The notes beneath the pieces are model-generated. The model searched no databases. It saw nothing but the letters and a program-made list of their open reading frames with translations, and was not told the DNA's origin. This document shows positions 3,399 through 47,671 of a stretch of 64,000 nt of DNA, piece by piece (positions within the stretch are counted from its first letter, which is position 1; each line of letters starts with the position of its first letter). This DNA is from Methanobacteriota archaeon. GTDB lineage: Archaea > Thermoplasmatota > E2 > DHVEG-1. The translations under genes were made by a program, and so were the position numbers. The stretch spans positions 224,001 through 288,000 of the forward strand of contig CAVYNH010000004.1 in the NCBI GenBank assembly GCA_963769885.1. The letters run 5' to 3'.

Positions 3399-3518
3399 AA
3401 ACAAATACATTTGTTCTGCATCTGTTTCTTATGCATTTTTTCACTATTTATTTATATACTAACCTCAATTCTATAATGAAAGGTAACGGTTAAATACAAA
3501 GTAGAAGGGATTTGCTCC

Positions 3519-4468: not shown

Positions 4469-4571
4469 GAAAAAATCTCTATAAAATTAACCGTTTTTTA
4501 ATTATCTTTAAACCGTTTTTAAGTTATGGCTTTATGGAGACGGTCAATTAAGATATGTGGAGGTAATACAT

Positions 4572-5084: not shown

Positions 5085-5144
5085 TCTGCAATACTACCAA
5101 AAAAAACGTTCAACGAATAACAGGAAAAAAATGAGGCGTTTGTC

Positions 5145-5591: not shown

Positions 5592-5624
5592 CTAGAATCA
5601 AAAGAGATTAATCAGGAAAAAGGT

Positions 5625-5735
5625 ATGGGCGAAAAGGAGACGCTTATTTCTACAGCCTATAGCGGCACGTGGTTGTTTGTCTGTCTTCTAATCATCATTA
5701 GCATTGCCACGTTGATAATTAATTTTCTCTACTAG
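5625..5735 (+). CDS. Putative 36-aa single-TM peptide
   Basis: MGEKETLISTAYSGTWLFVCLLIIISIATLIINFLY*, translated by hand; below the ORF-track cutoff. Confidence 0.4.
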   Translation: MGEKETLISTAYSGTWLFVCLLIIISIATLIINFLY

Positions 5736-5760
5736 CGAAGCCGCAACTCTAAAAAATATT

Positions 5761-13228: not shown

Positions 13229-13431
13229 TTTTATTTTCACCAGACCATCGAGCTTCGCTCGGCTATAGAAATATATTTTCAAAATACGTGTGAAACACCT
13301 TTAAAACAATTAAAATTTATAACAGCAAGAGAAGGATGAGTGAACGGAAATAAAACTCTTTATTTTCTAATGATGTATGAATCATCGTTCCCGAATTATG
13401 CGTCAAAGAGAAAAAAAACCGTAGTAATCCG

Positions 13432-14355
13432 TTAAGGAAAAAATATAATGAAGAGAAAATACCCTATGAGCAGAAAATAAAAGATAAAGAAAGACCCTGC
13501 AGATCGAAACACAAGGGGATTGATTCTAGAGATATCAGCCTTATATTTTATTAGACTAGAAACAGAAAAATAGAAAGGCAATAAAGAGAAAAGCGCTACC
13601 AACCAATAATTAATTTCTCCCGTACTAACATGAAAGAACCCATAGAGTACAAAACAAAGCGAGGCAAGAAATGACGAGAGAGCCCCTACGATAAGTCCAA
13701 ACGAAATCCCCTTTTGGACCACTAATGTATTCTTATGACCTTGACGATCTGCTTCTCTATCCGGAATCTCGAGGTAAAAACTTAGACTAAATCCCTGGAA
13801 TAGCAAGGGAAGCAGGAGGAAGAAATAAGGGACATTGAGCTGACCTGCAAGGGCAAAATATCCCAATCCAGGGGCAAGTAACCCTACTGCAAGCATCGTA
13901 CATATCTCACCAAAACCATGATAGAGAAGTTGAATAGGAGGTGCAGTATAATACCATCCAAGAAGATTTCCACACAAAACAAGGATAAAAAATGTCACGG
14001 GATACGAGAAGACAATCATACCAATAAAACCTACTACGATTGAGAAGCCAAGGAAAAACAAAGACACCTGTTTTACTGTTCTCATCAATTCAGGGTGCTC
14101 CACCAGAATTCGACTGCCACCAGAAAAAAAGGTTTGTGCTGCATTCCTATCGACAGCAACATCGTTATAATTATTGTTGTACACTGCAGAGAGCGTCCCT
14201 GCGAAAAGGATCACGTAGACAAATAGAAATCGGACTATGTCAAAGCGTGCGCCAACAATAACAGCGAAGAGAGCACCAAGAAGATACACTAAAAAAACAC
14301 CATGAATAATTGGTCTCCCTAACCTAACAATCCGAGTAATTTTCTGCAGATCTAT
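13432..14355 (-). CDS. UbiA/MenA-family prenyltransferase
   Basis: NNYNDVAVD...FSGGSR and EIPDREADRQGHKNTL motifs, multi-TM. The frame extends upstream of 14289 (IVRLGRP) to an ATA codon at 14355. Confidence 0.85.
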   Translation of the reverse strand: MDLQKITRIVRLGRPIIHGVFLVYLLGALFAVIVGARFDIVRFLFVYVILFAGTLSAVYNNNYNDVAVDRNAAQTFFSGGSRILVEHPELMRTVKQVSLFFLGFSIVVGFIGMIVFSYPVTFFILVLCGNLLGWYYTAPPIQLLYHGFGEICTMLAVGLLAPGLGYFALAGQLNVPYFFLLLPLLFQGFSLSFYLEIPDREADRQGHKNTLVVQKGISFGLIVGALSSFLASLCFVLYGFFHVSTGEINYWLVALFSLLPFYFSVSSLIKYKADISRINPLVFRSAGSFFIFYFLLIGYFLFIIFFP

Positions 14356-14421
14356 GAATAACCCCCCATATAACTGATTGTTTTTCTAATAGGGATAGTA
14401 GATATCGATTGGATTGGCCAG

Positions 14422-14781
14422 CTATGGAACGGTTATTGACTTCGTGTTAAAGCCGAATAGAATGCAATACGCTGATACAGTGATAACATCTCCAGGGTTC
14501 GCAGATAGGTTATATTCATATTTGTTGAGGAAAAAGCTTGGCTGTCTAGAATAGAAATGCACTTGATCTACCACGCCATTTTTTTCGACCTCAATCCGAT
14601 AGATATAATGGATGGAACGAACCGGAGTTGCATGGGACACAGTCACCTTTAAGGTATGGGTATTTGCTTGATATTGAATCCTAAGGTACCGTGGCGGGGT
14701 AGCGTCGACGTTCTGGTGTACAAGAGATAAACTCATGAACAGGACGGTAATAAAAATCCCAGCGATTTTCAGGTATTTCAT
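14422..14781 (-). CDS. Secreted small beta protein, remote superoxide-reductase-like fold
   Basis: Signal peptide; VTVSH..IHYIYRIEV..AYCILFG pattern. Confidence 0.5.
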   Translation of the reverse strand: MKYLKIAGIFITVLFMSLSLVHQNVDATPPRYLRIQYQANTHTLKVTVSHATPVRSIHYIYRIEVEKNGVVDQVHFYSRQPSFFLNKYEYNLSANPGDVITVSAYCILFGFNTKSITVP

Positions 14782-16413
14782 CTACACCCCTCCTGACTCC
14801 ACCGTGATATGCCAAATTTCACCAGTAGTCAGTATCGGACCGACGGTCCGTTGGGTCAGTACATACAACTCACCGGATTCATCTGCTCCGATACCCATAA
14901 TGCGAAGATTCAATGGTTTATCGCCACTCAGACGAAACTCCATGTGCTTCCAAACATTTGGTGCACTCTCATTCATATAGTAGAGTTTTCCTCGGGGCTG
15001 GAAATAGGTAGCACTCCAGTCGCCATAGACGTAGTTACCGACAAGCGAAGGAAACTGAGTACCTCGATAGACAACCCCACCGATGACACAGTGGCCAACG
15101 TAATGGCTGTAATCATAGACTGGTGGAGAAAGCGAACTGATATTTATTCCAAGTAACGTGGCTAATGCTGGGTCATAGAGATGATTTCCTTCCATGATCC
15201 TCCATCCGTAATTACCTCCCTTCTGAACGATATCGATTTCTTCCCAGAGGTCTTGGCCAACATCGCCGACAAACAGCCGGCCGTTCAGACTGTCAAAAGA
15301 AAAACGGAATGGGTTACGGAACCCGTACGCGTAGATTTCATCAAGTCCATCCACACCGACAAATGGATTGTCCTCTGGTACGCTATACGGAGTACCGTGG
15401 TCAACATCGATCCGTAATATTTTTCCAAGCAACGTACTGATATTCTGTCCATTGCCGATAACCCCATGCGGGTCGCCCTCACCGCCACCGTCACCGACCC
15501 CGATGTAGAGAAAACCATCCGGCCCAAAGGCAAGTTGTCCGCCACAATGGTTGAAATCAGGTTGTTTGATACTCAGAATGATTCTTTCAGAATTTGGATC
15601 CACCATATTGGAATTATTCGCAAAGACCTGATATTCAGCAATAATGTCCAGATGATCTACGCCAGATTCATTTGCTGGGGCTGTATAATACACAAAGAAG
15701 CGATGGTTAGATATGAAATCAGGATGAAAAGCCAACCCCAACAATCCGCGTTCATCATACACGGGTATGAGTTTCACAATTTTCTTTGACAAATCGAGGA
15801 AAGGCGTAGATTGGAGAACGCCGTTCTCAAGGAGGAGAATTTTGCCGGTTTGCTCAGCAATATAAAGGCGACCTGAGCCATCACCAGCGCCTGTTAAAAT
15901 AATTGGTGCCTTCAAACCGCTGGCAATAGGATCAAGGCGAACAGCCAATGACTCTTCTAATCCAGGTAGGAGGGTCACTCGAATTCCGGTGACATGTGCT
16001 CTTGCAGTGGTTGTTGTAGTGTTCGCATTTGAAGCGTTTACAGTTGCTACAACATTGATTTTTCCAAATCCTATAATGAATGGTATTTTGACAATAGAAA
16101 CGCTGCCTGGGAAAATCAGGGGGATTGTGCCTGATGCTTTTTTACCAACAACGACCAGTCCACCAGATAATGTAACACTCCAATGAACATTGGTTGCATT
16201 GATACTGCCTGTATTTATAATAAAAGCACTCATGCCGAAGAGCTCATTGATTTTATAATCAACATTAAAACCGCTACTAACAAAATCAATTCCAAGTGTA
16301 GTCATAGCTGTTGTTTTATTTTCTGACGCCAGAACCTCTGAATGTAGTACCGTGGCAACACTGGCAAAACTTACTAGCATGGTGCAAAAAAAGGTTATGA
16401 TTTTTTTCCCCAT
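14782..16413 (-). CDS. Secreted PQQ-dependent sugar (glucose/sorbosone) dehydrogenase with N-terminal Ig/CARDB-like domain
   Basis: ERGLLGLAFHPDF, NHCGGQLAFGPDGFLYIGVGDGG, YAYGFRNPFRFSFD, GGNYGW. Confidence 0.9.
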   Translation of the reverse strand: MGKKIITFFCTMLVSFASVATVLHSEVLASENKTTAMTTLGIDFVSSGFNVDYKINELFGMSAFIINTGSINATNVHWSVTLSGGLVVVGKKASGTIPLIFPGSVSIVKIPFIIGFGKINVVATVNASNANTTTTTARAHVTGIRVTLLPGLEESLAVRLDPIASGLKAPIILTGAGDGSGRLYIAEQTGKILLLENGVLQSTPFLDLSKKIVKLIPVYDERGLLGLAFHPDFISNHRFFVYYTAPANESGVDHLDIIAEYQVFANNSNMVDPNSERIILSIKQPDFNHCGGQLAFGPDGFLYIGVGDGGGEGDPHGVIGNGQNISTLLGKILRIDVDHGTPYSVPEDNPFVGVDGLDEIYAYGFRNPFRFSFDSLNGRLFVGDVGQDLWEEIDIVQKGGNYGWRIMEGNHLYDPALATLLGINISSLSPPVYDYSHYVGHCVIGGVVYRGTQFPSLVGNYVYGDWSATYFQPRGKLYYMNESAPNVWKHMEFRLSGDKPLNLRIMGIGADESGELYVLTQRTVGPILTTGEIWHITVESGGV

Positions 16414-16761
16414 AGCATAGCTCCTTATATCGTAGAATGATAAAATATGAAGCCATTTATAGTAATATCTATAAAATGATTTAAAAACATATAAAAAATG
16501 TCTACAAAACAGATGTTCAATATTTTATGTCCTTAGAAAAGGCAATCCATTTATTAGAAAAAACCGAATCGTCTTTTCGTTGAATACTATTTAATTGCTT
16601 GGAGTAGTTCTTTTACAATGTTTCGCCGATCATGTTTCGACATTTTCTGCCGGATTCCTATCGCCTTACAGTTTCTGATGCACTCGATGCCTCAAACTCA
16701 GATTGAAATTACTTCGTATGGCGCATACCTTCGCTTAAGGCAAAGAAAAAAAGAGGAATGA

Positions 16762-17535
16762 TTACCCGATGTACCGGATATCCTCGGGTTTCTCCTTGAC
16801 CATGCTCTCCATCTCGTTAAGCTGCTGCGCGATGTACTCGATCTCCCGGGCCTTCTCCTCAAGCCTCGAGTAGTCGACCTTGATGTTCACCGCCTTCGTC
16901 AGCACCTTCAATACGGCCTTCGCGCTCTTCGGGTCCACCAGATACCCGGGCGTCTCGCCCATGAAGCACGTCCCGGCGATCCCACGCAGCTTCCCCAGCC
17001 CAAGCAGGAGACCGCTGGCGCCGATGATCCCGCCGCCCGGCTCGTTCTTCTTGAACACCGCACCGTACTTCTTCGTCTCCTTGACGAACTTCACGTCCGT
17101 CGTGGCAAACAGGACCTTGGGCTCCTTGATCTCCCGGCCCAGCCCATAGCCGCCCAGCGTGAACATATGCGAGACATGCAGTCTCTGGATCACGTTGAGG
17201 ATCGACTCGGCCAGCTCGTACTGCCCTTGCGACGACAGCCCCTGATAATCCCCAGTCAACAGGACGAGGTCATGCTGCCCCTTCTGTTTGGCCCGCCAGA
17301 AATAGAACTCGTTGTTCACCAGTTTCACCGTCCCATCCGGGTTAATGAACACCTGTGGTGGAAAATCCTTGCTATACAACTCGGCGAACTTCGTCGCCTT
17401 CAGCGTCTCAATCAAATGCTCCACGGCAAGCTTCCCGACGTTCCCAATCCCCGGCAGCCCCTCAATCAGAATCGGCGCCTTCAACTTCGGAATCTTCGCC
17501 GTGTACTTAATCGTGACCAGATTCATTTTCAGCAT
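16762..17535 (-). CDS. Proteasome assembly chaperone (PAC2 family)
   Basis: IEGLPGIGNVGKL, MGETPGYLVDPKSA; conserved position after nop10. Confidence 0.92.
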   Translation of the reverse strand: MLKMNLVTIKYTAKIPKLKAPILIEGLPGIGNVGKLAVEHLIETLKATKFAELYSKDFPPQVFINPDGTVKLVNNEFYFWRAKQKGQHDLVLLTGDYQGLSSQGQYELAESILNVIQRLHVSHMFTLGGYGLGREIKEPKVLFATTDVKFVKETKKYGAVFKKNEPGGGIIGASGLLLGLGKLRGIAGTCFMGETPGYLVDPKSAKAVLKVLTKAVNIKVDYSRLEEKAREIEYIAQQLNEMESMVKEKPEDIRYIG

Positions 17536-17690
17536 GCCTCCAGTTTCTTCAGCGCCCGGCGGTATTTCCCGTAATGATCCTGCGGGGAGAACCGCGCGGG
17601 TTTATTCACTATCGTCCGCCCTTTGCACTGCGGACAGACATCCTGCAGGGTATAACAATGACATTCTCGACAGAAATGAATCGCTGCCAT
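17529..17690 (-). CDS. nop10: H/ACA RNP protein Nop10
   Basis: YTLQDVCPQC...PARFSPQDHYGKYRR. Confidence 0.93.
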   Translation of the reverse strand: MAAIHFCRECHCYTLQDVCPQCKGRTIVNKPARFSPQDHYGKYRRALKKLEAC

Positions 17691-17694
17691 AGGC

Positions 17695-18480
17695 CTACTC
17701 GACGATCTCACGCTTGAACTCGAACTCGCCCTTGCCCTTCATCTTCGCCTGGACGCGTTCCACCGCCTTTTTCATCTGGTGCTCCGCGACCTTATAATCC
17801 GGCGCCTTCACCTTAATGATGTACCGAGGCGCGCTAATGTACTTCACCTCGATCGTCACATCCTCATACTCCGTGGACTCCGCAGTGGTCAGCGCCTCCT
17901 TGATAAACGAGACGCCGTTCGGCAGCGCCGACGACACCATCAACATCCCCTTGATCTCCACGAACGGGATGCTGATACTCTCCTTGGAAATCTTCTCAAA
18001 CGACTGGAGCCACTCACCGGAAAACCCGTCCTTCACCAGCGTGTTACAGTCGTACGCGCACTCCTCAAACGCCACATACAGCGACCCGTACTTCTTGATG
18101 AGCGCGTCGCCGAACTCACGGTAACAGGCCTCCACCGGCTTGTTGAGGTTCTTGGCAACCATCTCGAAGAGCCGCGTAGACTTCTGCGTGTTCTTCCATT
18201 CCTGGATCTTCTCCCGGCGCTGATGGTCGTTGACCTTCTTCAGCGACAGGTCGATGTGGTTCTTCTGCACGTCGACATTGACGACCTTGCAGACCACTTT
18301 TTGCTTTTCACGCACAAAATTGCGAATCCGCTTCACCCACCCGGTCGCAATCTCAGAAATATGAATGAAGCCTTCCTTCCCAGCGTACTCGTCTAAAGAA
18401 ACGAAGGCACCAAAATTCTGCACCTTAGTAATCGTACCGACAATAAGCTCCCCGTCGTCAGGGTACTCCTTCTTTTGCAT
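17695..18480 (-). CDS. eif2a: Translation initiation factor aIF-2 alpha
   Basis: S1 domain YPDDGELIVGT..GFIHISEIATGWV, HIDLSLK, YISAPRY; true start MQKKEY. Confidence 0.96.
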   Translation of the reverse strand: MQKKEYPDDGELIVGTITKVQNFGAFVSLDEYAGKEGFIHISEIATGWVKRIRNFVREKQKVVCKVVNVDVQKNHIDLSLKKVNDHQRREKIQEWKNTQKSTRLFEMVAKNLNKPVEACYREFGDALIKKYGSLYVAFEECAYDCNTLVKDGFSGEWLQSFEKISKESISIPFVEIKGMLMVSSALPNGVSFIKEALTTAESTEYEDVTIEVKYISAPRYIIKVKAPDYKVAEHQMKKAVERVQAKMKGKGEFEFKREIVE

Positions 18481-18493
18481 ACGTAGGTGGACC

Positions 18494-18670
18494 TTATTCG
18501 ATCGTCTCGAGAATGGTCCCTTTGATCTTCGCCTTGCCACCCGTCGGGGTCGCAAGGGTGCTGCTGCAGATGTGACAGAGCACCGTGTTGCTCGCCTTGT
18601 CGAACATCACCTGCTCGTTCTCGCAATCGTTGCAGCGGACCTTGATGAAGCGGCTCTTCGGCTGATCCAT
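18494..18670 (-). CDS. rps27e: 30S ribosomal protein S27e
   Basis: Hand translation: MDQPKSRFIKVRCNDCENEQVMFDKAS..CHICSSTLATPTGGKA; not in the ORF track. Confidence 0.95.
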   Translation of the reverse strand: MDQPKSRFIKVRCNDCENEQVMFDKASNTVLCHICSSTLATPTGGKAKIKGTILETIE

Positions 18671-36967: not shown

Positions 36968-38022
36968 TATGCCCACCTCTTGCTGGTGTGCCGGAGGACG
37001 AGGAAGGCGAGGAGGTTGAAGATGAGGACGACGAGGAAGAGGATGAGGGCGACGAAGATGAGGGCGGAGGCGAGGAGGGGGATGGAGCTGACTTCGGTGT
37101 AGTTGTTGGCGATGAGGCTGGCGAGGGTCTGGCCTGGGCCGAAGAGGCTGCTGGGGATGAGTTCTTGGTTGCCGATGACCATGCTGACGGCGATGGTTTC
37201 GCCGAAGGCTCTGCCGAAGCCGAGGAAGATGGCGGAGAGGATCCCGGGTCCGGAGGCGCGGAAGAGGACTTTTTTGACGGTCTCCCATTTGGTGGCGCCC
37301 AGTGAGAGGCTGGCTTCTTTGAGGGCGATGGGGATCGAGCTGATGGATTCGATGCAGAGGCTGATGATGATGGGGAAGACCATGATGGATAGGATCAGGG
37401 AGGCAGCAAAGAGGCCGAAGCCGCTGCTGGTGTGGACGCCGAAGGCGGGGGCGATGGTGTCGCGGACGACGGGGACGAAGACGAGGAGGGCGCATAGGCC
37501 GAAGACGACGGAGGGGACGCCGGCGAGGACGTCGATGAAGGGGCGGATGGTGTTGCGGAAGCGGCTGGGGGCGTATTCGGCGATGTAGATGGCGGTGAGG
37601 AGGGAGACGGGGACGGCGATGAGCATGGAGATGGCGGTGACGATGAGGGTGTCGATGATGACGGCGAAGAGGCCGAACTGGCCGGAGAAGGGTTTCCAGG
37701 TGGAGGAGAAGAGGATGTCGGTGATGGAGCGGCCTTCGAGGACGGTGAAGGAGCCGTTGATGAGGATGGCGATGAGGAAGATGAAGATGGCGAGGGCGGC
37801 GAGGGTGATGGTCATCATGAGGCGGGTGCCCAGGATGTCGAAGAGCCGGCGGCTGATCCTGATGAAGTCGAAGAAGATGATGACAAGGGAGACGGCGAGA
37901 AGGGCGAGGAAGATGATGAGATTATTGAGAAGGAAAAGGGAGAGGAGGGCGAGGATAAAGATCAACAAGGCAGAGAAGAAGGATCTCTTCTTGACGACGC
38001 TGGCTGCCTTGTTGAAGCGCAT
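36964..38022 (-). CDS. pstC: Phosphate ABC permease PstC
   Basis: LAGVPSVVFG, EASLSLGATKWE, GRAFGET. Confidence 0.94.
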   Translation of the reverse strand: MRFNKAASVVKKRSFFSALLIFILALLSLFLLNNLIIFLALLAVSLVIIFFDFIRISRRLFDILGTRLMMTITLAALAIFIFLIAILINGSFTVLEGRSITDILFSSTWKPFSGQFGLFAVIIDTLIVTAISMLIAVPVSLLTAIYIAEYAPSRFRNTIRPFIDVLAGVPSVVFGLCALLVFVPVVRDTIAPAFGVHTSSGFGLFAASLILSIMVFPIIISLCIESISSIPIALKEASLSLGATKWETVKKVLFRASGPGILSAIFLGFGRAFGETIAVSMVIGNQELIPSSLFGPGQTLASLIANNYTEVSSIPLLASALIFVALILFLVVLIFNLLAFLVLRHTSKRWAY

Positions 38023-38041
38023 GAGCGAGGTTGTGGTGTTG

Positions 38042-39046
38042 TTATGTTCCGAGTTTGCTGAGCTGGTCGGCGATGATGGCGTCGGGGACTGGGGCGTAGC
38101 CGTTGGTGATGGTGAGTTGTTGGCCTTCGGTTAGGATCCAGCGGACGAAGTCGCGGGTTGCGCCTGTGAAGTTGTTGAGGGTGACGAGATAGACGAGTCT
38201 GGCGGGTGGGGCGTGGAGGTTGCCGTTGATCTCGGCGTTGACGATGTCGGTGCGGGTGGTGTAGATGGTTTCGTTGGCGTCGAGTTTGCCGTTGCCGTTG
38301 AAGTCGATGGGGACGACGACGAGGCCGGTCTTGGGGCGTAGGGTGGAGTTGGAGTAGATGTAGTTGACGTTGCTGTAGCCGATGCCCAATTGGTCGCTGA
38401 TGATGGAGGCTGACATGCTGTCGTCTCCTTTGACCTTGGTGACGGTTTCGACGGTGGGGAAATCGTCTTGGGTGTAGTTGCCCAGGAACTTCGCCCAGGT
38501 TTCTGCGGCGCCGCAGACGTCGGAACGGGAATAGACCTTGATGACGTCGGTGACGGTTGTGTCGTTGACGAGCGTGCCCCAGGTGGTGATGTTGCGGGTG
38601 ATGAAGACGTCGCGGAACTGTTGCTGGGTGAGGCCGGTGGTGGTGATCTTGTCTTTGACGGGGTTCGCGTCGTTGATGGTTGGGAGGACTGCGTCTTTGA
38701 CTACGGCAACGAAGACGATGCCTTTGTCTGCTTCAGCGGTGGTGACGTCTCGGGAGACCATGCCGAGGTTGACGGTGCCTGCGAGGGCGTCGGACATGCC
38801 TTTTCCGGCGCCGCCGGATGAGACGTCGATGCGGATGTTGGTGTGGTTCTTTTGGTAGGTTTGGGCCCAGACGACCATCATCGGGTATAGGCTGTAGGCG
38901 CCTGAGACCTTGATGGTGTTGGTGGTTTGTTGGCTGGTGCAGCCGCTGAAGCCGACGACGACGAGGGTGGTGGCGAGGAGAAGCGTTGTGACGGCGAGCA
39001 GGGTTTTGCGCTCAGGCCTGTGGGTTCCTTTCCTTTCTTTCATCAT
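38042..39046 (-). CDS. pstS: Phosphate-binding lipoprotein PstS
   Basis: Lipobox FSGC; SGAYSLYP, GGAGKG, GMVSR. Confidence 0.9.
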   Translation of the reverse strand: MMKERKGTHRPERKTLLAVTTLLLATTLVVVGFSGCTSQQTTNTIKVSGAYSLYPMMVVWAQTYQKNHTNIRIDVSSGGAGKGMSDALAGTVNLGMVSRDVTTAEADKGIVFVAVVKDAVLPTINDANPVKDKITTTGLTQQQFRDVFITRNITTWGTLVNDTTVTDVIKVYSRSDVCGAAETWAKFLGNYTQDDFPTVETVTKVKGDDSMSASIISDQLGIGYSNVNYIYSNSTLRPKTGLVVVPIDFNGNGKLDANETIYTTRTDIVNAEINGNLHAPPARLVYLVTLNNFTGATRDFVRWILTEGQQLTITNGYAPVPDAIIADQLSKLGT

Positions 39047-39117
39047 GAATCTGTCTCCTTTTTTGGTACTGGTAAGCGTGACATTGCCTACCCCATGGCC
39101 GTACCATAGGCGCCCGG

Positions 39118-39177
39118 GTATTTAAAAGTATTGGTAAATATTGGCAAAATGCCAAAATTGGAAATTTATTGGAAAAC
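39118..39177 (-). promoter_or_regulatory. pstS TATA box with upstream TTGGNAAA repeats
   Basis: TTTTAAATA on the minus strand at ~39119-39127; TTGG(T/C/A)AA units at 39131, 39141, 39158, 39169. Confidence 0.45.
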
Positions 39178-39294
39178 AGCCATGAAAATCAGCGTATTCG
39201 AGCCCAATCCTGTGACAACGGGGTTTTCGCGGAAAAAAAGCAAAAAACAGAAAAACAGCGAAAGGGGGAAAAAGAAAGGGAAAAAAGGCGCCGG

Positions 39295-39702
39295 CTATTT
39301 GAGCCAGACGCGTATCTGCGGGCGGTTCTGTTTCTCCTCGACCTTGGTCGCGATCTTCTCTTCGCGGGCCAGCCAGCCGAGCGCGCTGAACGCCTCGCTG
39401 ACGTCGATGCGGGCCATCCGGGCAAGCGTTTGAACATCAATCTCGCCCTTCTGGGACAGGACCCCCCAGATCTTGCCGGCGTCCGTGCCGATCTTCGTGG
39501 TCAGGTTCGTGTCCCCGAGCTTGTACACGGTGCCGTTCTTACAGATCTTGTTCTCGCGGGCCAGCCAGCCGATCGCAGCCTGCAGCTCGCGCTCATCCAG
39601 GAGCGTCATCGTCAGGAGCTTCGTCTCTGACAGCGGTCCCTTGCAGTTCAGTGTTTCCCATACCTTTCCAGCATGCTCTCCAAATTGAGTCACAGGTGTC
39701 AT
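39295..39702 (-). CDS. Tandem DUF2582-type winged-helix protein (paralog of 2994-3398)
   Basis: AGKVW..AIGWLARENKI..AGKIW..ALGWLAREEKI. Confidence 0.82.
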   Translation of the reverse strand: MTPVTQFGEHAGKVWETLNCKGPLSETKLLTMTLLDERELQAAIGWLARENKICKNGTVYKLGDTNLTTKIGTDAGKIWGVLSQKGEIDVQTLARMARIDVSEAFSALGWLAREEKIATKVEEKQNRPQIRVWLK

Positions 39703-39893
39703 ACTCTCGAATCCCACCTTCACTTATCGCTAGAAGGTATAGCCTACAAGGTTATTAGTGTTATGATTCTGCGAAGCACCGCGGAAAAAAAATTGAATAG
39801 ACAACGCTGACGCACCCCTATTATTATAGTACTGTGCGGCGCAATCGCCCGTAGGACTCGGATAAGACTCACTTCGCGTTCGGGTCGCTAGCT

Positions 39894-40018
39894 GAAGCAC
39901 GTGAAGGAAGACCGCCGAGTGAGGAGGCAGGAATAACAAGAGAGGGAGATACTAAATGGTTACTGTGACACACAAGGCAGTGCAATACCAGAAGGCGACA
40001 AAGGTTCGAACTGCATAA
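39894..40018 (+). pseudogene. 3' remnant of an IS6-family transposase
   Basis: EAREGRPPSEEAGITREGDTKWL / ..KAVQYQKA aligns with EALNGKTPSEEAGITIEGEDKWL..KSIQYQKA of the intact transposase. Confidence 0.8.
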
Positions 40019-40047
40019 GAATCACATGATTATGCACCGTCATCTAA

Positions 40048-40290
40048 TCAAACAAAAAAATAAAAACTACTCACAATCACCAAAAGTAATCCAAATCCAA
40101 GCCAAATCCCAGCAAGTACCCAAAATCCAACTGGATTCTCTTCTCTATTCAGCGATAATACTTGACTTGAGTACCGAGGAACGAAACGAAGTTCACCCTT
40201 TCTAATGTAATAAATACCGAACGATATTAATCCTATCCCCAAAACAAAGAATATCAGAATTTTTTCTACGCCTACACCTGCTGACATCAC
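40048..40290 (-). CDS. Small two-TM membrane protein (probable cargo of the older element)
   Basis: Two hydrophobic helices around REENPVGFW. Confidence 0.6.
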   Translation of the reverse strand: MMSAGVGVEKILIFFVLGIGLISFGIYYIRKGELRFVPRYSSQVLSLNREENPVGFWVLAGIWLGFGLLLVIVSSFYFFV

Positions 40291-40384
40291 AGGATCAATG
40301 AAAGAATCCGCTGGTTGGTAATAACATTTTTCGAGGTTTGAGTTATCCTCTATTGCTCAAGGAGACCTGTTAGTGACCACAGGA

Positions 40385-40427
40385 CATTCCCCACAGATAA
40401 GTCCCCACATCATTTTTCCACAGAATC
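40385..40427. repeat. Degenerate right TIR of an older related element
   Basis: 28/43 ungapped identity to 47608-47650; ends ..CACAGAATC directly before CACCCCAA. Confidence 0.7.
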
Positions 40428-40435
40428 CACCCCAA

Positions 40436-40476
40436 GGTTCTGTGTAAAACCGTAGTGGGAATTTTGTAGTGGGAAA
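40436..40476 (+). repeat. Left TIR with two GTAGTGGGAA boxes
   Basis: GGTTCTGTGTAAAACCGTAGTGGGAATTTTGTAGTGGGAAA. Confidence 0.93.
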
Positions 40477-40546
40477 ATAGGGTTGGTGTTTCTACAGATA
40501 TGTTTTTAAAGAAAAAATCAATATTAAAACATCTTTAAGAGATGAA

Positions 40547-40867
40547 ATGATGGGTTTCTTCAAGAAGAAAGCAGAGGAGAAAACATCTCATATCAAGAAA
40601 ATTGAAACTGATGATAAAGAATTTGAAGATGTCACATTAGAAAAAAATATTGATGCAGATATCGGATATACGAAACGTGATCTTTACATTGTTCCTGGTG
40701 TTGATGAAGTTGATATCCCAAGGTCAAAGGTAAGGCAGGAGTTTTTAACCAGACCTACGAATTATAGATGTACTAAGTGTAAGAGTATCCTCTATAATAC
40801 GAAACTTGATGGTAGACATTATTATTGCCCAATCTGTAATGTGCAATGGGATAAGGACGATTTATAA
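40547..40867 (+). CDS. Hypothetical protein with C-terminal Zn ribbon
   Basis: CTKC...CPIC. Confidence 0.7.
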   Translation: MMGFFKKKAEEKTSHIKKIETDDKEFEDVTLEKNIDADIGYTKRDLYIVPGVDEVDIPRSKVRQEFLTRPTNYRCTKCKSILYNTKLDGRHYYCPICNVQWDKDDL

Positions 40868-40980
40868 TGCCAATTGATTTGCATAAAACCTTAGTTAAAA
40901 CTGTTTTACTGTTTTTCTGATACATTGGATTTGTGTATTTTAGGTTTGCAAACTATTTAAAAACTTAAAGTGTTTATTCT

Positions 40981-41062
40981 TATGCCACCCCTATCAATCT
41001 CACTCATGTGTTTCGCCAACTATGAGTCTTTTTGATGGGGGTGGTATATATAACCAATTTTT
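40981..41062 (+). ncRNA. Candidate hairpin antisense sRNA against the transposase mRNA
   Basis: TATA TTTAAAAA at 40956-40963; 17-bp outer stem with G-U pairs only on the + strand; 41000-41019 complementary to 42815-42834; downstream T-run. Confidence 0.65.
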
Positions 41063-41127
41063 CTAAAAACAATATATAAAAGAAAAAGAAAAACTATATT
41101 AGATTAGATTAAATTTCTTATTCTAAA

Positions 41128-41889
41128 ATGCCGATTGCTCTAAGTGTATTTGGATTAGACGAAATAGAAGAGAAAATATTTTTAAATGAAACAAAAAAAA
41201 CCTTCTCTTTATCTGATTTCCAATCAAACCTAGATTCAATTGCGGAGATCAAAGATATCCAGCCAGCTACCACAACTTTCACTCGAACATCCTATAATCC
41301 TCAAACAAAACGAGCAAAGTATTATGTCGAGCATTGGACCGATACAAATAAAGAAATCATTCGTGCTTTCCTGAAAGACCCGGACGAATCAATTCTCTAT
41401 GCTGACCAACTTTTAAAACCATTAGCAACTCATAAATTTGAATATGGATTTCAAACCTTAGTTAAACTTAATATCATGATTGATTTCGTGGACAAAGAGA
41501 TTTTTGTTTTTATGAATAAAAGAATCGCTAAACAGATAATAAATCGTTTGGAGGCAGTAGGAGGTTTAAAATCTCTCCCTATTTTCTTGAACTTAAAAAA
41601 CATAAGTTAAAGTGCAGTTGTTCAAGATGTTAATATTGTGTGGGAAGATGAACTGGATGTTAATGTTAAAAAAATCGGATGGATAGGGGTTCAAGTTCAT
41701 AAAGATAAGAGAGTAGATTTAAGCAAAGCAACTGCAATAAAAGTCGAAATAATAAGCAATCAAAAAATCATCCCTGATGTTTTTATTTCTGATGATGCTA
41801 GATTAAGTTCATTGTCCCCTAATGTGGGCACAAGTGAAATGGTCCAGATTTATAAGATATTAAAGGAGAAGACCAAACAATTAAGTTAG
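41128..41889 (+). pseudogene. Unknown ~253-codon gene split by one in-frame TAA at 41608-41610
   Basis: ORFs 41128-41610 and 41638-41889 are in the same frame with open codons between them. Confidence 0.65.
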
Positions 41890-42537
41890 TAGTTTTTTAA
41901 CAATTTCTTGAACCATTGATAATCCTTTAAAGTTAATGCTAACTGTGTTTTCCATTATTATTTTTATTTTAGTTTTAGATTCTTGGTCCTCCATATTGAT
42001 TATGTAATTCTCAATGACAAAGCCCTTTGGTTTTTTTATGCGAATTAATTTCCATTGAAAAGGAAGTTCTAGATCGAGTTTGCAATTCAACAAAGAACGA
42101 AAAATCTTTTTATTGATAAGACCTTCAAAATCAATTATTATCTCACTTATTTTTTTTGACAAATCTCTTAGTCCGGATTCCATTCTTTCAATTTCTACAT
42201 AGACCTCTTTGATAGATACTTTAAAAACAATAACAGAATAATGGCTATTGGAAAAATCAAGTTTTATTTCATTGTCAATTTTTTTTGTTCCTTCACCAAA
42301 CATTGAATGTACTTCATTTTTTATAATATTAAAATCAGTCTCTGTTTCAAAAGTAAAAATCAACCTAGCATTCGCTCCTTTATTTGTAACGATAGCCCAT
42401 TTTTTTCTTAGTCTATTTAAAAGATCATATTTGTCTTCTATAAGTAAACCTATTATCGAACCCACACAAGTAGTAATGATTAGAATAAAGCCGACATATG
42501 TATTAACAAACTCTACTATTGAATTAAAGTCAGTCAG
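41881..42537 (-). CDS. Hypothetical N-terminally membrane-anchored protein
   Basis: Frame is open upstream of GTG 42465, through a TM segment, to CTG 42537, which overlaps the upstream TGA and follows AGGTGA. Confidence 0.65.
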   Translation of the reverse strand: MTDFNSIVEFVNTYVGFILIITTCVGSIIGLLIEDKYDLLNRLRKKWAIVTNKGANARLIFTFETETDFNIIKNEVHSMFGEGTKKIDNEIKLDFSNSHYSVIVFKVSIKEVYVEIERMESGLRDLSKKISEIIIDFEGLINKKIFRSLLNCKLDLELPFQWKLIRIKKPKGFVIENYIINMEDQESKTKIKIIMENTVSINFKGLSMVQEIVKKLLT

Positions 42538-42734
42538 CCTTTTTCACCTTCGTTATTTTCCTTGTTTTGTGCTTTTTCAAGGAGTTCGACTTTTTGTAAT
42601 TCGATAAGTCGTAGTCGTAATGTCTCGTGAACAAATTCGCTTGAATCTCTATAAAGAAACCTTTTGTTATTTACAATTTCATTGATTTTTTTATGAATTT
42701 CAATATCTAAGTTTAGGGTCTTATATTTCGCCAT
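42534..42734 (-). CDS. Ribbon-helix-helix (CopG-like) regulator
   Basis: YKTLNLDIEIHKKINEIV...YRDSSEFVHETLR; divergent from the transposase. Confidence 0.75.
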   Translation of the reverse strand: MAKYKTLNLDIEIHKKINEIVNNKRFLYRDSSEFVHETLRLRLIELQKVELLEKAQNKENNEGEKG

Positions 42735-42826
42735 AACACATATATGGCTTATATATATGTTATACTATTTAAGTATATTTAGATACCTTTAAATAGAGAT
42801 TGTAATATGTAATATTGGCGAAATAC

Positions 42827-43999
42827 ATGAGTGAACGAATAGACATTAAAGAAATGGTGAATGCTCGAAGAGCACGAGGCATGATTCTCCTTGAAAACGG
42901 ATTTGAACCAAAGGAAATTAACTCGAAGACATGGATTGTCCCAAGCCAAACAGGGAACGGCACATATACGGTTCATTATGCGGATGATGAACGGACCATT
43001 TGGAGATGCACCTGCAAAGACTTTGAAATTCGAGGGCTCCCATGTAAACATATCAATGCCGTGAAAATCTGGAAAAATCTCCATGATAGATTCGAGCAAC
43101 TAAACCTTAAAGTGAAACAAAGCATCAGCCTTGGAAACACTGAGACTCAAGGATGCAAATTCTGCCATTCATCAGACATCACAAGATACGGCGTGAAAAA
43201 CGGGAAGCAAGTCTATTTCTGTAAATCATGCAATCGAAGATTCGTGAACAATATTGATTTTGAAAACATGAAGTACAACCCTAAGATAATCGCCTTGACG
43301 CTTGATCTCTATTTCAAAGGGATAAGCCTTCGGAAAATCAGCCACCACCTCAAGCAGTTCTATAATCTGAATATCAGCCACAAGTCCGTGTACAATTGGA
43401 TAGAGAAGTACGTAGGAATCATGAATGAGTATGTGAACAGTATTCAACCTGATATTGGGGGCGTGTGGCATACTGATGAGATGATGGTGAAGGTGGATGG
43501 TTCCTGGGAGTATCTCTGGAATGTAATTGATGAAAGCACTCGATTCCAGCTTGCATCTATCGTTTCAAAGGAACGTCACGTTAGGGATGCACGCATGGTG
43601 TTCCAGAAGGCGAAGAAGAATGCTGGAGGAAGGAAACCAAAGTACTTAGTCACGGATGGACTATTAGCATATCGTGAGGCCGTCAATAAGGAGTTTAATA
43701 CGAATCACGGCAATATTGAGCATCTTTGGAATGTAGGGATACAACATCACCCGAACAACAACCATGTAGAACGGTTACATGGCACTATCCGCCAACGGGA
43801 AAAAGTCATACGAGGAATGAAGATAGAAGAGACTCCGATTATCGAGGGACATAGGTTATACTATAATTTCATCAAGCCCCATGAGGCGTTGAACGGAAAG
43901 ACACCATCAGAAGAAGCAGGGATAACCATCGAAGGGGAAGATAAATGGCTTACTCTCATGAAGAAATCAATTCAATATCAGAAGGCGAATAAACAATAA
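42827..43999 (+). CDS. IS6-family DDE transposase with N-terminal SWIM finger and Zn ribbon
   Basis: SWIM CTCKDF..CKH; CKFC..CKSC; HTH; DDE triad WHTDE, VTDG, NNHVERLH. Confidence 0.92.
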   Translation: MSERIDIKEMVNARRARGMILLENGFEPKEINSKTWIVPSQTGNGTYTVHYADDERTIWRCTCKDFEIRGLPCKHINAVKIWKNLHDRFEQLNLKVKQSISLGNTETQGCKFCHSSDITRYGVKNGKQVYFCKSCNRRFVNNIDFENMKYNPKIIALTLDLYFKGISLRKISHHLKQFYNLNISHKSVYNWIEKYVGIMNEYVNSIQPDIGGVWHTDEMMVKVDGSWEYLWNVIDESTRFQLASIVSKERHVRDARMVFQKAKKNAGGRKPKYLVTDGLLAYREAVNKEFNTNHGNIEHLWNVGIQHHPNNNHVERLHGTIRQREKVIRGMKIEETPIIEGHRLYYNFIKPHEALNGKTPSEEAGITIEGEDKWLTLMKKSIQYQKANKQ

Positions 44000-44059
44000 C
44001 CCCTTCTTTTTTTCTTTTGCCAAAATTAAAGAAGAATCGAACAATATCGAATATCAGTT

Positions 44060-46885
44060 ATGGAAGATGACCTTGTTAAACAAAAAGTACAATCACTCAT
44101 AGATGATTTCAGAAGTAATTATAACGAATACAAGAAAGAATCCGAAGCTAGTATAGAAACAAAACTAATTGAACCACTCTTCAAATGTTTAGGTTGGACT
44201 GAAAAAGATTTTAGCAAACGAGAACGAACACAACGAGAAGGCAAACTAGGTTTTGCGGATTACACGTTCTACATAAAAGATAAGAAAGTATTTTTCCTCG
44301 AAGTAAAAAAGATTGGAGTGCCGTTAGACAAAGAGGCAGATGCACAAGTCGTATCTTATGCTCTATCAAAATCTGTTTCCATCGCAATCTCGACGAATTT
44401 CGAACAGCTCAAAGTGTTTTGTGTCGAAGAAGAGAATTTAGATAAAAGAATGATTTCAATCTTCAAAACACCAGAAGATTACCTTGACAAATTCTATGAT
44501 TTGATTTTACTTTCTAAGTCTAGTTTTGAACAAGATCTCTTAATGAAAAAAGCTGAAGACCTTAATCTATTAAAAAAACGGATAACCATAGATAAACCAC
44601 TTCTTGACAACCTAATTCTTATCCGTAAGTTCATTGCTGATGATATAGAGAAAAAATATTCAGGGAAATATCAACCCAATGAAAAAGAAGAGATCATACA
44701 AAGAATTATCGACAGACTGATTTTCATCAGGAAATGCGAGGACACAGGAATTAACCCAGAGAACCTGACCCTAAAAGATGTCCTCACAGTAACTGATGAA
44801 AAAGCATACAAAAAATTAAAAGAGATATTCGAAGAATACAATACTCGATACAATAGTGGATTATTCGCCATCGATAAAGACAATGAATGCGATAGGATAC
44901 AGATAACTGGAGATATAATTAAAAAACTCATTGGATATCTCTACATTTCCAGAAACGGAGGATACCACTATAATTTCGAATGGATACCTGCCGATATTCT
45001 TGGACAAGTCTATGAACAATACCTTGGAAAGATACTAGAACAAACAAAATCAGGTAAAGCCAAACTAACAAATGGACAGGTACATCGAAAGGAACAAGGC
45101 ATTTATTATACGCCTACCTTTGTCGTTGATTATATCGTAAAAACTACAGTTGGAGAAGTGTTGAAGAATAAAAAAGTAAAAGTAAAGGAATTAAAAATAT
45201 TGGACCCTGCTTGTGGCTCGGGTTCTTTCTTAATCAAAGCTTTTGATTATATCTACCGAAATCAATCAACCGGGGATTCTCAACAATATAGAATTGACGG
45301 TCAAGGGCAGTATTCTGTTAAAACAGAGATACTGAAAAATAATCTGTACGGAGTGGATTTAGATAATAAAGCAATAGAAATAACCAAGTTAAATTTACTC
45401 TTAAAAGCAGCGGAGAAAGGAAGACGTTTACCTGTAGAGATTGACATCAACATAAGACAAGGAAATTCATTAATCGACGACGAATCAATTGCAGGATTGA
45501 ATGCTTTTAAGTGGACCGACAAAACAAAAAATAAGGACAACAGGAAATTTGACGTAGTTATTGGAAATCCGCCTTATATCAAGGTAGAACAAATTAAAAA
45601 AGAAGAAAAAGAATGGATTTATCAAAATTTTGAAAACGCTACTGGAAGAACTGATTTATACGTACTTTTTTTAGAGAAAGCATTAGAGCTAACAAAGGAC
45701 GACGGCCTAATCTCTTTCATTATTCCAAGTATATGGATGAAAGCGAAATATGGAGAAAAACTAAGAGAGAATTTGGTAAGAAACTATCAGATAAAATCAA
45801 TCATCGACTTCGGCGATCTTAAGGTCTTTGAAAGTGTCACCACTTATCCATGTATCATTTTGATTAAAAAGAAGAAACCAACTGGAAACGACACCATCAT
45901 CTATTATAAAGTTCCTAGTTTGAATGAATCAATAATTAACAATCTTGAAAATGCTATAAAAAAGGACTCTTGGATGATTAGGCAAAAAGAATTTGATTGG
46001 AACTTTGCAAATCCACAGGTAAAAAAAATATTCGATAAATTAAACAAATCATCAAAAATCAGGCTAAGTGACCTAAGAGACCAAATTTATGAAGGTTTGA
46101 TTACCGGAGATAACAAGGCTTTTTTTGTTGATAGAGAGACAGTAGAAACAAAAAATCTCGAAAGGGAATTGTTAAAACCTGTTCCAAAAGGAAAAAACAT
46201 CAGACGTTTTTCAATTCGGTGGGAAAAAGAATATGTCATATATCCTTACAAACAGAATATGCTTAAGACTGAACCTGTTAATATCAAAGAATATCCAAAC
46301 GTAAATTCTTACCTTGCTGAATTTGAAAAAAAGCTCACAGCTAGAACCTCAATTAAAGGGACTAACAAAAAATGGTTTGAACATGTTCGTCCTAGAGAAA
46401 AATGGTGGTTTGAAAAACAAAAAATCTTAACTCCAAACCTATCATCAAGTAACAACTTTGCTATTGACGAAGGACGTTCAAATGAATATTTTTATGTTGA
46501 CCATGATGCATATGCGATTACGCTAAAAACAAATAGCAGAGAAGATTTATTGTTTATTTGTGGGCTTCTTAATTCATCTCTTATAGAGTTTTACATTAAG
46601 CAGATAAGTCCTATGTTCTCAGGTGGATATTACAAATATCATACTCAATATCTTGATCCAATCCCGATAATTAAACCATCTAAAAAAGAAGAAATCAGAT
46701 TCGTGAAATTAGTCGAGAGGATTATTCTTCTGAATAAAACATTAACAAAGATTGGCGATAAAAAGACTGCCGAAAGTGCAAAACTCGAAGAAGAAATTAA
46801 GAAAGTTGATAATCAAATCGATGAACTTGTTTTTGACCTCTACCATTTGACCAAAGACGAAAAGGAGATTATTAAAAAATCTTAA
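44060..46885 (+). CDS. Type IIG restriction-modification enzyme (Eco57I/TaqI-like fused REase-MTase-TRD)
   Basis: PD-(D/E)xK ADY..LEVK; GIYYTP; ILDPACGSGSFL; GNPPY; TaqI_C-like C-terminus. Confidence 0.92.
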   Translation: MEDDLVKQKVQSLIDDFRSNYNEYKKESEASIETKLIEPLFKCLGWTEKDFSKRERTQREGKLGFADYTFYIKDKKVFFLEVKKIGVPLDKEADAQVVSYALSKSVSIAISTNFEQLKVFCVEEENLDKRMISIFKTPEDYLDKFYDLILLSKSSFEQDLLMKKAEDLNLLKKRITIDKPLLDNLILIRKFIADDIEKKYSGKYQPNEKEEIIQRIIDRLIFIRKCEDTGINPENLTLKDVLTVTDEKAYKKLKEIFEEYNTRYNSGLFAIDKDNECDRIQITGDIIKKLIGYLYISRNGGYHYNFEWIPADILGQVYEQYLGKILEQTKSGKAKLTNGQVHRKEQGIYYTPTFVVDYIVKTTVGEVLKNKKVKVKELKILDPACGSGSFLIKAFDYIYRNQSTGDSQQYRIDGQGQYSVKTEILKNNLYGVDLDNKAIEITKLNLLLKAAEKGRRLPVEIDINIRQGNSLIDDESIAGLNAFKWTDKTKNKDNRKFDVVIGNPPYIKVEQIKKEEKEWIYQNFENATGRTDLYVLFLEKALELTKDDGLISFIIPSIWMKAKYGEKLRENLVRNYQIKSIIDFGDLKVFESVTTYPCIILIKKKKPTGNDTIIYYKVPSLNESIINNLENAIKKDSWMIRQKEFDWNFANPQVKKIFDKLNKSSKIRLSDLRDQIYEGLITGDNKAFFVDRETVETKNLERELLKPVPKGKNIRRFSIRWEKEYVIYPYKQNMLKTEPVNIKEYPNVNSYLAEFEKKLTARTSIKGTNKKWFEHVRPREKWWFEKQKILTPNLSSSNNFAIDEGRSNEYFYVDHDAYAITLKTNSREDLLFICGLLNSSLIEFYIKQISPMFSGGYYKYHTQYLDPIPIIKPSKKEEIRFVKLVERIILLNKTLTKIGDKKTAESAKLEEEIKKVDNQIDELVFDLYHLTKDEKEIIKKS

Positions 46886-47430
46886 AGACTAAATATTTTA
46901 ATCTCTTTTATTTTTTCATTGACATTTTCAGGAGAGCAACATGGTAAATATTTTTCTGCATTCTTACAAAAAATCGAATCAGTAGAAACTAAGAGGTCAC
47001 AACCTACTTCTAATGCTGTTGCGAGATGAATCGAATCAGAAGCAGAAAGATTAGACTCTTTGCAAATCTTTATTGCCTTTTCGATGGCTACTTCATCTAA
47101 CCAATAAAATTGTACAAATTTATATGGAGTGAAAAACCTGTTTTTGATTTTTGTATAAATTAATTCTAGGGTCTTATCTGATAAATCTTTATCATCCCTT
47201 TTTCTTAAAATTTTTTTAAATGTCCATCCTTCTTTGATTTTTTCATAGATAAATTCATTATCCTTCTGCACACTTAAAGCTTCCATTAATGCAAATTGAG
47301 ATGTAATACAGTCCCATCCATTATTTTTTATTTCCTCTATCAGGTCAATGGAAGGAGTATGTATGCCTTGGACAATGTCAACAATGATGTTTGTATCTAT
47401 GTAAATCTTGGGTTTTATGAATACTTCCAT
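46882..47430 (-). CDS. PIN-domain (VapC-like) ribonuclease
   Basis: IYIDTNII, TSQFALME, DSIHLATA, STD. Confidence 0.88.
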   Translation of the reverse strand: MEVFIKPKIYIDTNIIVDIVQGIHTPSIDLIEEIKNNGWDCITSQFALMEALSVQKDNEFIYEKIKEGWTFKKILRKRDDKDLSDKTLELIYTKIKNRFFTPYKFVQFYWLDEVAIEKAIKICKESNLSASDSIHLATALEVGCDLLVSTDSIFCKNAEKYLPCCSPENVNEKIKEIKIFSL

Positions 47431-47432
47431 AA

Positions 47433-47591
47433 TTAAAATCTTGGCCTTCTTTTTTTGACATGTCTTGATGGTTTCCTTCTTCTACTGAAAAAAACTTTAT
47501 TGGAACTTATAGATTGACCATCCATAGTCTCCTCTGCCTTGCCTTCTGAATAATTAATCTCTGATTTATCATTTTCCTTTTTGTCGGCCAT
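47433..47591 (-). CDS. 52-aa charged peptide upstream of the PIN gene (candidate antitoxin)
   Basis: MADKKENDKSEINYSEGKAEETMDGQSISSNKVFFSRRRKPSRHVKKRRPRF*; stop is 2 nt before the PIN ATG. Confidence 0.5.
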   Translation of the reverse strand: MADKKENDKSEINYSEGKAEETMDGQSISSNKVFFSRRRKPSRHVKKRRPRF

Positions 47592-47609
47592 ACCTGTTAC
47601 CACTCTTGA

Positions 47610-47650
47610 TTTCCCACTACTAAATTCCCACTACTCCCTTACACAGAACC
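47610..47650 (-). repeat. Right TIR with two GTAGTGGGAA boxes
   Basis: Reverse complement GGTTCTGTGTAAGGGAGTAGTGGGAATTTAGTAGTGGGAAA. Confidence 0.93.
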
Positions 47651-47654
47651 CACC

Positions 47655-47671
47655 CCAACAAGGTTTATATA
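47655..47671 (+). promoter_or_regulatory. Probable BRE/TATA of the r-protein operon
   Basis: CCAACAAGG-TTTATATA; the only TATA-like sequence before rpl3. Confidence 0.65.

Follow-up and report, generated by a model that had tools for sequence, protein, structure and literature searches.

A candidate separately encoded antisense RNA directed at the transposase start of an archaeal IS6-family transposon

The DNA analyzed here, referred to as the window, is a 64,000-nucleotide stretch from a member of the Thermoplasmatota. It contains a 7,215-bp IS6-family transposon at 40436–47650, and a long hairpin sits inside this element (Table 1). The transposase matched the Pfam families DDE_Tnp_IS240 (8.9e-21) and SWIM (2.4e-7) and scored 134.2 bits against the NCBIfam IS6 equivalog NF033587, above the cut-off of 125. 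As cargo, the element carries a zinc-ribbon ORF, four small ORFs, a type IIG restriction-modification gene and minus-strand ORFs. Three further transposase copies were identified in the same genome, with 72–75% DNA identity. In the copy on contig C1, a 480-aa ORF reads as a putative DNA methyltransferase, and this ORF and the type IIG gene of the window element were counted as defence cargo.

Table 1. Features of the transposon and of its predicted sRNA gene in the window.
Feature	Position	Strand	Description or basis
Target-site duplication, left copy	40428..40435	.	8 bp, CACCCCAA; same octamer at 47651-47658
Left terminal inverted repeat	40436..40478	+	GGTTCTGTGTAA tip and two GTAGTGGGAA boxes; related elements are flanked alike
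Predicted sRNA promoter	40931..40963	+	Box-like upstream part (TTGTGTATTTTAGG), BRE-like GCAAAC, TATA TTTAAAAA at 40956-40963
Outer stem of hairpin	40981-40997 / 41032-41048	+	17 bp, two G·U
Predicted sRNA, ~65 nt, single long imperfect hairpin	40984..41048	+	Fold; stem covariation; 5' end from TATA spacing
Antisense segment (5' strand of inner stem and apical loop; loop UCGCC is the conserved seed)	41000..41019	+	19/20 complementary to 42815-42834; target covariation in relatives
Inner stem	41002-41007 / 41022-41027	+	ACTCAT/ATGAGT
Internal U-tract, between inner stem and 3' arm	41029..41033	+	Kept as T4-7 in class A hairpins
Transposase promoter TATA	42788..42795	+	TTTAAATA; puts mRNA 5' end at ~42816-42817
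Predicted target	42815..42834	+	Predicted mRNA 5' end TTGGCGA, spacer AATAC, AUG 42827-42829, codon 2 and two bases of codon 3
Transposase, 390 aa	42827..43999	+	SWIM zinc finger, Zn ribbon, IS6-type DDE domain
Right terminal inverted repeat	47611..47650	-	~40 bp, GGTTCTGTGTAA tip
Target-site duplication, right copy	47651..47658	.	8 bp, CACCCCAA

Membership in the IS6 family was indicated by the IS6-type DDE transposase, by repeats that start with GG and carry a cTGT motif at their tips, and by the 8-bp target duplication, all of which are shared with known IS6/IS26 elements (PMC7986276). The compact, passenger-free form expected of the family was not observed. Known members are 0.7–0.9 kb long with 15–20 bp repeats and essentially no passengers, a single passenger case being listed (PMC7986276), whereas the related elements identified here share the same repeats, are 2.8–7.2 kb long, have ~40-bp repeats with two internal boxes and carry cargo in three slots. 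They also differ in the SWIM and Zn-ribbon N-terminus of the transposase and in the presence of an sRNA gene. Perfect 8-bp target duplications flanked eight of ten elements, and their sequences were unrelated to one another and unlike the RNA.

The position of the sRNA gene relative to the element ends was also investigated. Four relatives, namely the C6 copy in this genome and elements of G058, G067 and G019, have the sRNA promoter starting at 33 bp from the tip of the left repeat, with box 2 of this repeat as its upstream part. This arrangement indicates that the sRNA gene ancestrally occupied the far left end and read into the element. In the window, it is separated from the left end by 495 bp that contain an ORF, and the promoter retains the box-like sequence. 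Three other roles for these sequences were considered and rejected. The hairpin is not the left end of the window element, as it lies 495 bp inside. The 20-mer at the transposase start is not a terminal inverted repeat of a compact insertion sequence beginning at 42815, since a conserved TATA lies upstream of it and the true ends with the 8-bp duplication are at 40436 and 47650. Guidance of the 5' arm of the sRNA (CCACCCC) to the target site CACCCCAA was rejected because the duplications of other elements are unrelated and the arm and duplication of the C1 copy do not match.

Folding of 40975–41075 on the + strand gave one long hairpin of −36.9 kcal/mol (z −7.55), and none of 200 shuffled sequences folded as well. 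The − strand of the same segment folded more weakly (−27.4 kcal/mol, z −3.7), because the two non-Watson-Crick pairs of the hairpin are G·U on the + strand only. An initial annotation of this DNA had claimed both the 17-bp pairing of the outer arms and its strand polarity, and the folds of the two strands bear these out. The TATA that it placed at 40956–40963 was likewise found there, as TTTAAAAA, 28 nt ahead of G40984, the first well-conserved base of the stem. Among 30 related hairpins with a located TATA, the distance from TATA to stem start was mostly 25–31 nt, with extremes of 18 and 35. In the usual archaeal geometry, the TATA is centred near −26/−27, and by this spacing the 5' end of the sRNA would fall at the foot of the stem, at G40984. 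The promoter region matched that of the C1 copy at 34 of 35 positions, C1 having one additional T, compared to only 74% identity in the rest of the sequence. The genes that flank promoter and hairpin differ between the two copies despite the near-identical promoter.

The inner stem described in the initial annotation and its loop, which contains UUCGCC, are present, as is the T5 run at 41058–41062 that follows them, but this run showed no conservation in relatives and was rejected as a terminator. A T4–7 run just ahead of the 3' arm was conserved in hairpins of class A (defined below). This internal U-tract may serve as a leaky or partial terminator or as a site for an archaeal Sm-like protein. 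It could also end transcription ahead of the 3' arm, an outcome at odds with the covariation seen in the outer stem. The hairpin was also considered as the leader of the ORF at 41128–41610, and this was rejected because the genes 3' of the hairpin are different in every element. An Rfam cmscan of 38000–46000 with E up to 1 returned no family for the hairpin, just a chance snoRNA match elsewhere. A search of public sequencing runs with 40436–44059 found no RNA run among the holders listed.

The segment at 41000–41019 is the reverse complement of 42815–42834 at 19 of 20 positions, and the single mismatch is a G·U pair. Repeat comparison thus reproduced the match first noted in the initial annotation, together with its span over the predicted mRNA start and AUG. 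Within the 64 kb, the transposase 5' end was the sole 20-nt target of the antisense segment. The sRNA gene and its target lie on the same strand, 1.8 kb apart. A duplex energy of −35.3 kcal/mol was calculated, compared to −19.0 ± 3.5 kcal/mol with shuffled targets. Part of the antisense segment is hidden within the inner stem, and the dimer gains only ~5 kcal/mol over both RNAs folded apart. Every transposase gene was preceded by the same arrangement, namely a TATA (TTTATATA-like), ~28–29 nt, TGGCGA (or TGGTGA), 5–8 variable bases and the ATG. The spacing from transposase TATA to GGCGA equals that from sRNA TATA to stem, and it places the beginning of the target at the predicted mRNA 5' end. 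We infer that the transposase mRNA starts at GGCGA with a leader of ~10 nt, which is predicted to fold weakly (−1.5 kcal/mol).

Two further features were observed near the target. The sRNA loop can form 12 contiguous pairs, two of them G·U, with the start of a divergent 66-aa ORF in the window (42715–42734, − strand, AUGGCGAAAUAUA), and the sRNA might also touch the mRNA of this ORF. Other elements have different cargo ahead of the transposase, so this pairing is not general. In many relatives (L020, L023, L068, L069, L071, L072 and others), a 10-bp palindrome with the sequence GTGGTACCAC, or its variants GTGGCGCCAC and GTGGCACCAC, lies just ahead of the transposase BRE/TATA; it is degenerate in the window at 42778–42787. 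It is probably an operator for some regulator.

A total of 53 related elements in Thermoplasmatota genomes and metagenomes, which give 49 distinct pairs, had this promoter and hairpin on the strand of the transposase, 0.25–4 kb ahead of it. A covariance model was built from promoter and hairpin and used on genomes of the family and on metagenomic loci. Hairpins were detected in 17 of the 108 genomes of the family, their hosts being uncultured Thermoplasmatota or Thermoplasmatales, and transposase copies occurred in 40 of 118 genomes of the order. Two more hairpin copies were identified in the genome of the window, ~2 kb upstream of two C1 transposase copies. Matches were nearly always on a transposase-bearing contig, upstream of the transposase and on its strand, and the promoter was kept in every one. 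Among 80 metagenomic loci, the model found 34 more hairpins, and four others, missed by the model, came from scanning directly for sequences complementary to the mRNA 5' end. The hairpin was present in 29 of the 31 metagenomic loci that had at least 3 kb of upstream sequence. In the two exceptions, L141 and L149, no complementary hairpin was found within up to 5 kb upstream. These two loci, along with L147, L150, L151 and L153, carry a transposase subclade of ~70% identity with a different 5' region, in which AGGTTG replaces TGGCGA.

Two structural classes with the same promoter were distinguished. Class A, to which the window belongs, is a single long hairpin with the loop UCGCC; class B is a longer three-way structure with the loop UUCACC. 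A complete 7-kb element with a class B sRNA was seen on a contig in an Ignavibacteriaceae bin (L093), and the bacterial assignment of this contig is probably a binning error. At L068, a promoterless class A hairpin (1–84, − strand) abuts an oppositely oriented transposase (78–311, + strand) truncated at about residue 312; the junction, ~12–16 nt ahead of the stem, marks a break by rearrangement or deletion close to the predicted start of the sRNA. The sRNA promoter was also seen with no recognisable anti-transposase hairpin, in L078 (85–215, − strand), L082 (3869–3982), L083 (402–461) and L074 (3238–3328). These copies may be degenerate, or the promoter may drive something else.

The constant position of the hairpin upstream of the transposase, on the same strand, would also suit pairing within a single molecule. 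The anti-start sequence would then act only within long read-through transcripts that come from the left end or from outside the element, and in L068, L071 and L143 it is separated from its target by only ~250 bp. Fold-back protection of this kind has been described for read-through transcripts of IS10 and IS50. It could co-exist with action in trans, but as the account of these elements we regard it as unlikely. The hairpin has a dedicated, strongly conserved promoter 28 nt ahead of it, most elements have 1–4 kb of variable cargo between hairpin and target, often on the opposite strand (window 41881–42734; C1 13976–15804), and the transposase has its own conserved TATA, which places the mRNA start at the target.

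The structure of the hairpin was examined in an alignment of 19 class A sequences with 12 outer-stem pairs. The outer stem was 91% paired, compared to ~44% when the partner strand was slid by one to three columns, and 11 of the 12 pairs showed changes on both sides. The 10 core pairs contained 28 G·U and only five non-pairs, and the many G·U pairs of the stem occur on the + strand only. Together, the compensatory changes and G·U pairs indicate that the outer stem is an RNA structure on the + strand. Its sequence was also conserved (GCCAYCCC / GGGRTGGY). The inner stem is rebuilt in each lineage from the anti-AUG and spacer strand and a downstream mimic, and a GC-rich seed remains in a loop of 5–9 nt across lineages.

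The loop and its target covaried among the related elements. The initial annotation had asked whether the hairpin loop of each related element changes together with the transposase 5' end of that element, and the 53 pairs described above gave a strongly positive answer. Between the conserved TGGCGA and the AUG lie 5–8 hypervariable nucleotides, and these change together with the loop. In the 34 metagenomic pairs, a set independent of the first 13 pairs, the mean cognate duplex score was 15.4, compared to 8.4 ± 0.4 for permuted partners, and none of 10,000 permutations reached the cognate value. The first 13 pairs had contiguous cognate duplexes of 13–20 nt, and their non-cognate combinations scored ~7–10 unless a spacer class was shared. 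Complementarity extended over 13–20 nt in 17 of 19 genome-locus pairs and over 9–20 nt in the metagenomic pairs. As the match recurs and covaries in relatives, the 19/20 complementarity in the window is far beyond chance.

The register of the pairing was fixed. Specifically, the spacer AAUAC faces the loop sequence GUGUU in the window, AAUAU faces AUGUU in C1, CACAU faces AUGUG in G089, AAAACAA faces UUGUUUU in G044, and CCUAC faces GUAGG in one element of G019 (G019a). In class B elements, GGUGAACAACG lies opposite CGUUGUUCACC, and pairing often ends 1–3 nt short of the AUG. Seed variants (TGGAGA, TGGTGR; GGAGA, GGUGGC, GGUGUC) were likewise matched by their loops. One lineage departed from this pattern. 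In L095 (3534–3659) and L096 (628–755), a CCUAC-type sRNA loop stands beside a transposase with the spacer CCGAA, and the anti-AUG part is lost. The match has decayed so that only 8 nt and ~5 nt can pair, which may represent escape from control or a mismatched recombinant.

The kinds of mismatch tolerated in these duplexes were informative as to what is under selection. Over a 16-nt register, the 49 distinct pairs comprised 704 Watson-Crick and 45 G·U pairs, along with 6 A·C and 29 transversion-type positions. Most of the transversion-type positions were at the 3' edge of the class B duplexes, where these end; because related lineages are not independent, these raw counts overstate the significance. 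In the first 13 pairs, from seed to AUG, there were 172 Watson-Crick, 12 G·U, no A·C and three transversions, and the G·U pairs were estimated to represent ~8–9 independent events. Both genes lie on the same DNA strand, so neutral decay of G-C pairs should yield G·U and A·C equally. As judged from these counts, the surplus of G·U points to selection for RNA pairing in one polarity, that of a + strand hairpin transcript with the sense mRNA.

In the window alone, the 20-mer is an inverted repeat with the transposase start, as it would be if it acted at the DNA level only, through an operator or cruciform, or were the decayed inverted copy of a transposase 5' end or terminal repeat. With the relatives included, such a reading is hardly credible. 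The hypervariable spacer is still matched in 49 distinct pairs, the true terminal repeats and target duplication are located elsewhere, and DNA symmetry would not yield 45 G·U against 6 A·C or stem G·U pairs on the + strand only. The decayed inverted copy and the purely DNA-level operator, both of which had been entertained in the initial annotation, were refuted by this evidence.

Tolerance of G·U would equally fit an RNA:DNA hybrid, in which rG·dT pairs form. We also considered the hairpin as an RNA cofactor or guide acting on DNA, which would bind the transposase or, as an R-loop, the promoter or 5'-end DNA, and steer transposition or transcription in the manner of an IS110 bridge RNA. The conserved sequence of the outer stem could mark a protein-binding site, and the sRNA gene lies at the left end of the element, where it overlaps a repeat box. 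Even so, we consider such a role very improbable, because the complementarity is always to the internal site at the predicted mRNA start and AUG and never to the element ends, and the perfect duplications of eight elements bear no resemblance to one another or to the RNA. IS110-type bridge RNAs have loops complementary to the element ends and to target DNA; the loop observed here is complementary to the start of the transposase mRNA.

Based on these observations, we consider it likely that the hairpin is a separately encoded antisense sRNA of ~65 nt, transcribed from its own archaeal promoter within an IS6-family transposon, that silences translation of the transposase. Structure, promoter conservation, linkage, covariation and the G·U bias form the basis of this explanation, and transcription, the RNA ends and the sign of regulation are inferred. 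The covariation and the conserved promoter thus support the trans-acting silencer envisaged in the initial annotation. In the proposed mechanism, the apical loop (UCGCC) would first contact the extreme 5' end (GGCGA) of the transposase mRNA. Pairing would then spread along the 5' strand of the inner stem, over the 10-nt leader, the AUG and the second codon, to form 13–20 bp. The start codon of this nearly leaderless mRNA would be hidden and translation initiation blocked, and the paired mRNA would probably be exposed to decay. Transposases tend to act in cis, and the sRNA would be diffusible. Repression should consequently grow with copy number, as in the multicopy inhibition of IS10. The sRNA most likely keeps the element from jumping too often. 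In the ancestral arrangement, the sRNA promoter and box 2 of the left repeat overlap, so that transposase binding could also feed back on sRNA synthesis.

Covariation demonstrates pairing and leaves its sign undefined, and a positive antisense RNA for a transposase is on record in Asr9 of ISPpu9, which activates by opening a structured 5' UTR (PMC8450116). Pairing could, in the same way, stabilize the transposase mRNA or aid the ribosome. This is very unlikely for the elements described here, as a leader of ~10 nt with its weak fold of −1.5 kcal/mol offers no inhibitory structure to open, and the class A duplex covers the AUG itself.

The predicted sRNA is most likely a trans-encoded functional counterpart of RNA-OUT of IS10/Tn10, the closest likeness among known systems. 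RNA-OUT is a 69-nt stem-loop RNA, complementary to the translation initiation region, that blocks ribosome binding and causes multicopy inhibition (PMC5006887). The predicted sRNA is likewise a transposon-encoded single stem-loop of ~65–70 nt complementary to the transposase initiation region, here including the 5' end and start codon, and copy-number-dependent repression would be expected by analogy. Pairing by RNA-OUT is initiated at its loop, which meets the very 5' terminus of the IS10 transposase mRNA. The two differ in their genetic arrangement. RNA-OUT comes from the strand opposite to its target, which it overlaps, and its perfect complementarity over 35 nt is given by construction, whereas the gene described here is on the same strand, 0.25–4 kb away, and matches over 13–20 bp, so that loop and target must co-evolve. 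The host also differs, being an archaeon with no Hfq, TATA/BRE promoters and a near-leaderless mRNA. Neither the Rfam model of RNA-OUT nor sequence homology to it gave a match in 38000–46000 at E up to 1.

Other antisense RNAs of insertion sequences resemble the predicted sRNA in part. Cis-antisense transcripts over transposase starts are reported from archaea, among them IS6 elements of Pyrococcus furiosus, and have been proposed as silencers (PMC6640164). These RNAs share the archaeal setting and IS6-family transposase; they are overlapping transcripts mapped by dRNA-seq, with no separate gene, conserved hairpin or covariation evidence. Asr9 and Ssr9 of ISPpu9 and art200 of IS200 are sRNAs encoded by insertion sequences; they base-pair with each other or with the 5' UTR of the transposase (PMC8450116, PMC4513863). 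Of these, Asr9 and art200 belong to the cis-antisense type, Ssr9 targets an sRNA rather than an mRNA, and all three are bacterial, Hfq-linked and from other IS families. Antisense or small RNAs are not mentioned in the main review of the IS6 family (PMC7986276), and our literature search found no description of such an RNA for this family. Sequence comparison supports antisense control of a transposase in a form that is trans-encoded, co-evolving, archaeal and of the IS6 family.

Antisense control of transposases is a textbook subject for IS10, where both RNAs come from the same DNA and their match is automatic. In the elements described here, regulator and target are separate genes, and their match must therefore be held by selection. 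The 49 distinct pairs, the many spacer types and the G·U-biased mismatches provide a comparative argument for an archaeal sRNA–mRNA interaction as strong as can be attained before experiment. If confirmed, this would be the first regulatory RNA for the IS6 family, which is of considerable practical importance through IS26, and would be among the very few archaeal sRNAs with a defined target and a mechanism on a near-leaderless mRNA. It would also provide a ready-made set of orthogonal RNA switches. The elements themselves constitute a group of IS6-family transposons, not described before, that carry cargo and mobilize defence genes in Thermoplasmatota of sediments.

Over a dozen types of spacer occur in nature, each with its matching loop, and copies that reside in one genome differed in spacer (the window, C1 and C6 copies in this genome; two copies each in G019 and G020). 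These co-resident differences lead us to suggest, tentatively, that loop and mRNA leader form a diversifying RNA specificity code, legible directly from these natural spacers and loops, by which each lineage would count as well as restrain only its own copies and new spacers would found orthogonal "incompatibility groups". If this were true, several transposon lineages could share one genome.

The ends of the elements showed an additional arrangement. Ends of two elements were found back-to-back, exactly 8 bp apart, in six places in four genomes (window 40385–40435; L008 6232/6241 and 13210/13219; L090 5586/5595; L074 2506/2515; L018 385/394). In the window and C1, the 8 bp between the back-to-back ends are the target duplication of the intact element, which suggests targeted insertion at the edge of an element already present, in many cases a relic. 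L008 (contig C1 of G000) also contained two near-identical 5.4-kb sister transposons, 835–6232 and 13219–18612, inverted and ~7 kb apart, with the transposase frameshifted in one copy and broken in the other. This inverted pair may be the product of intramolecular replicative transposition.
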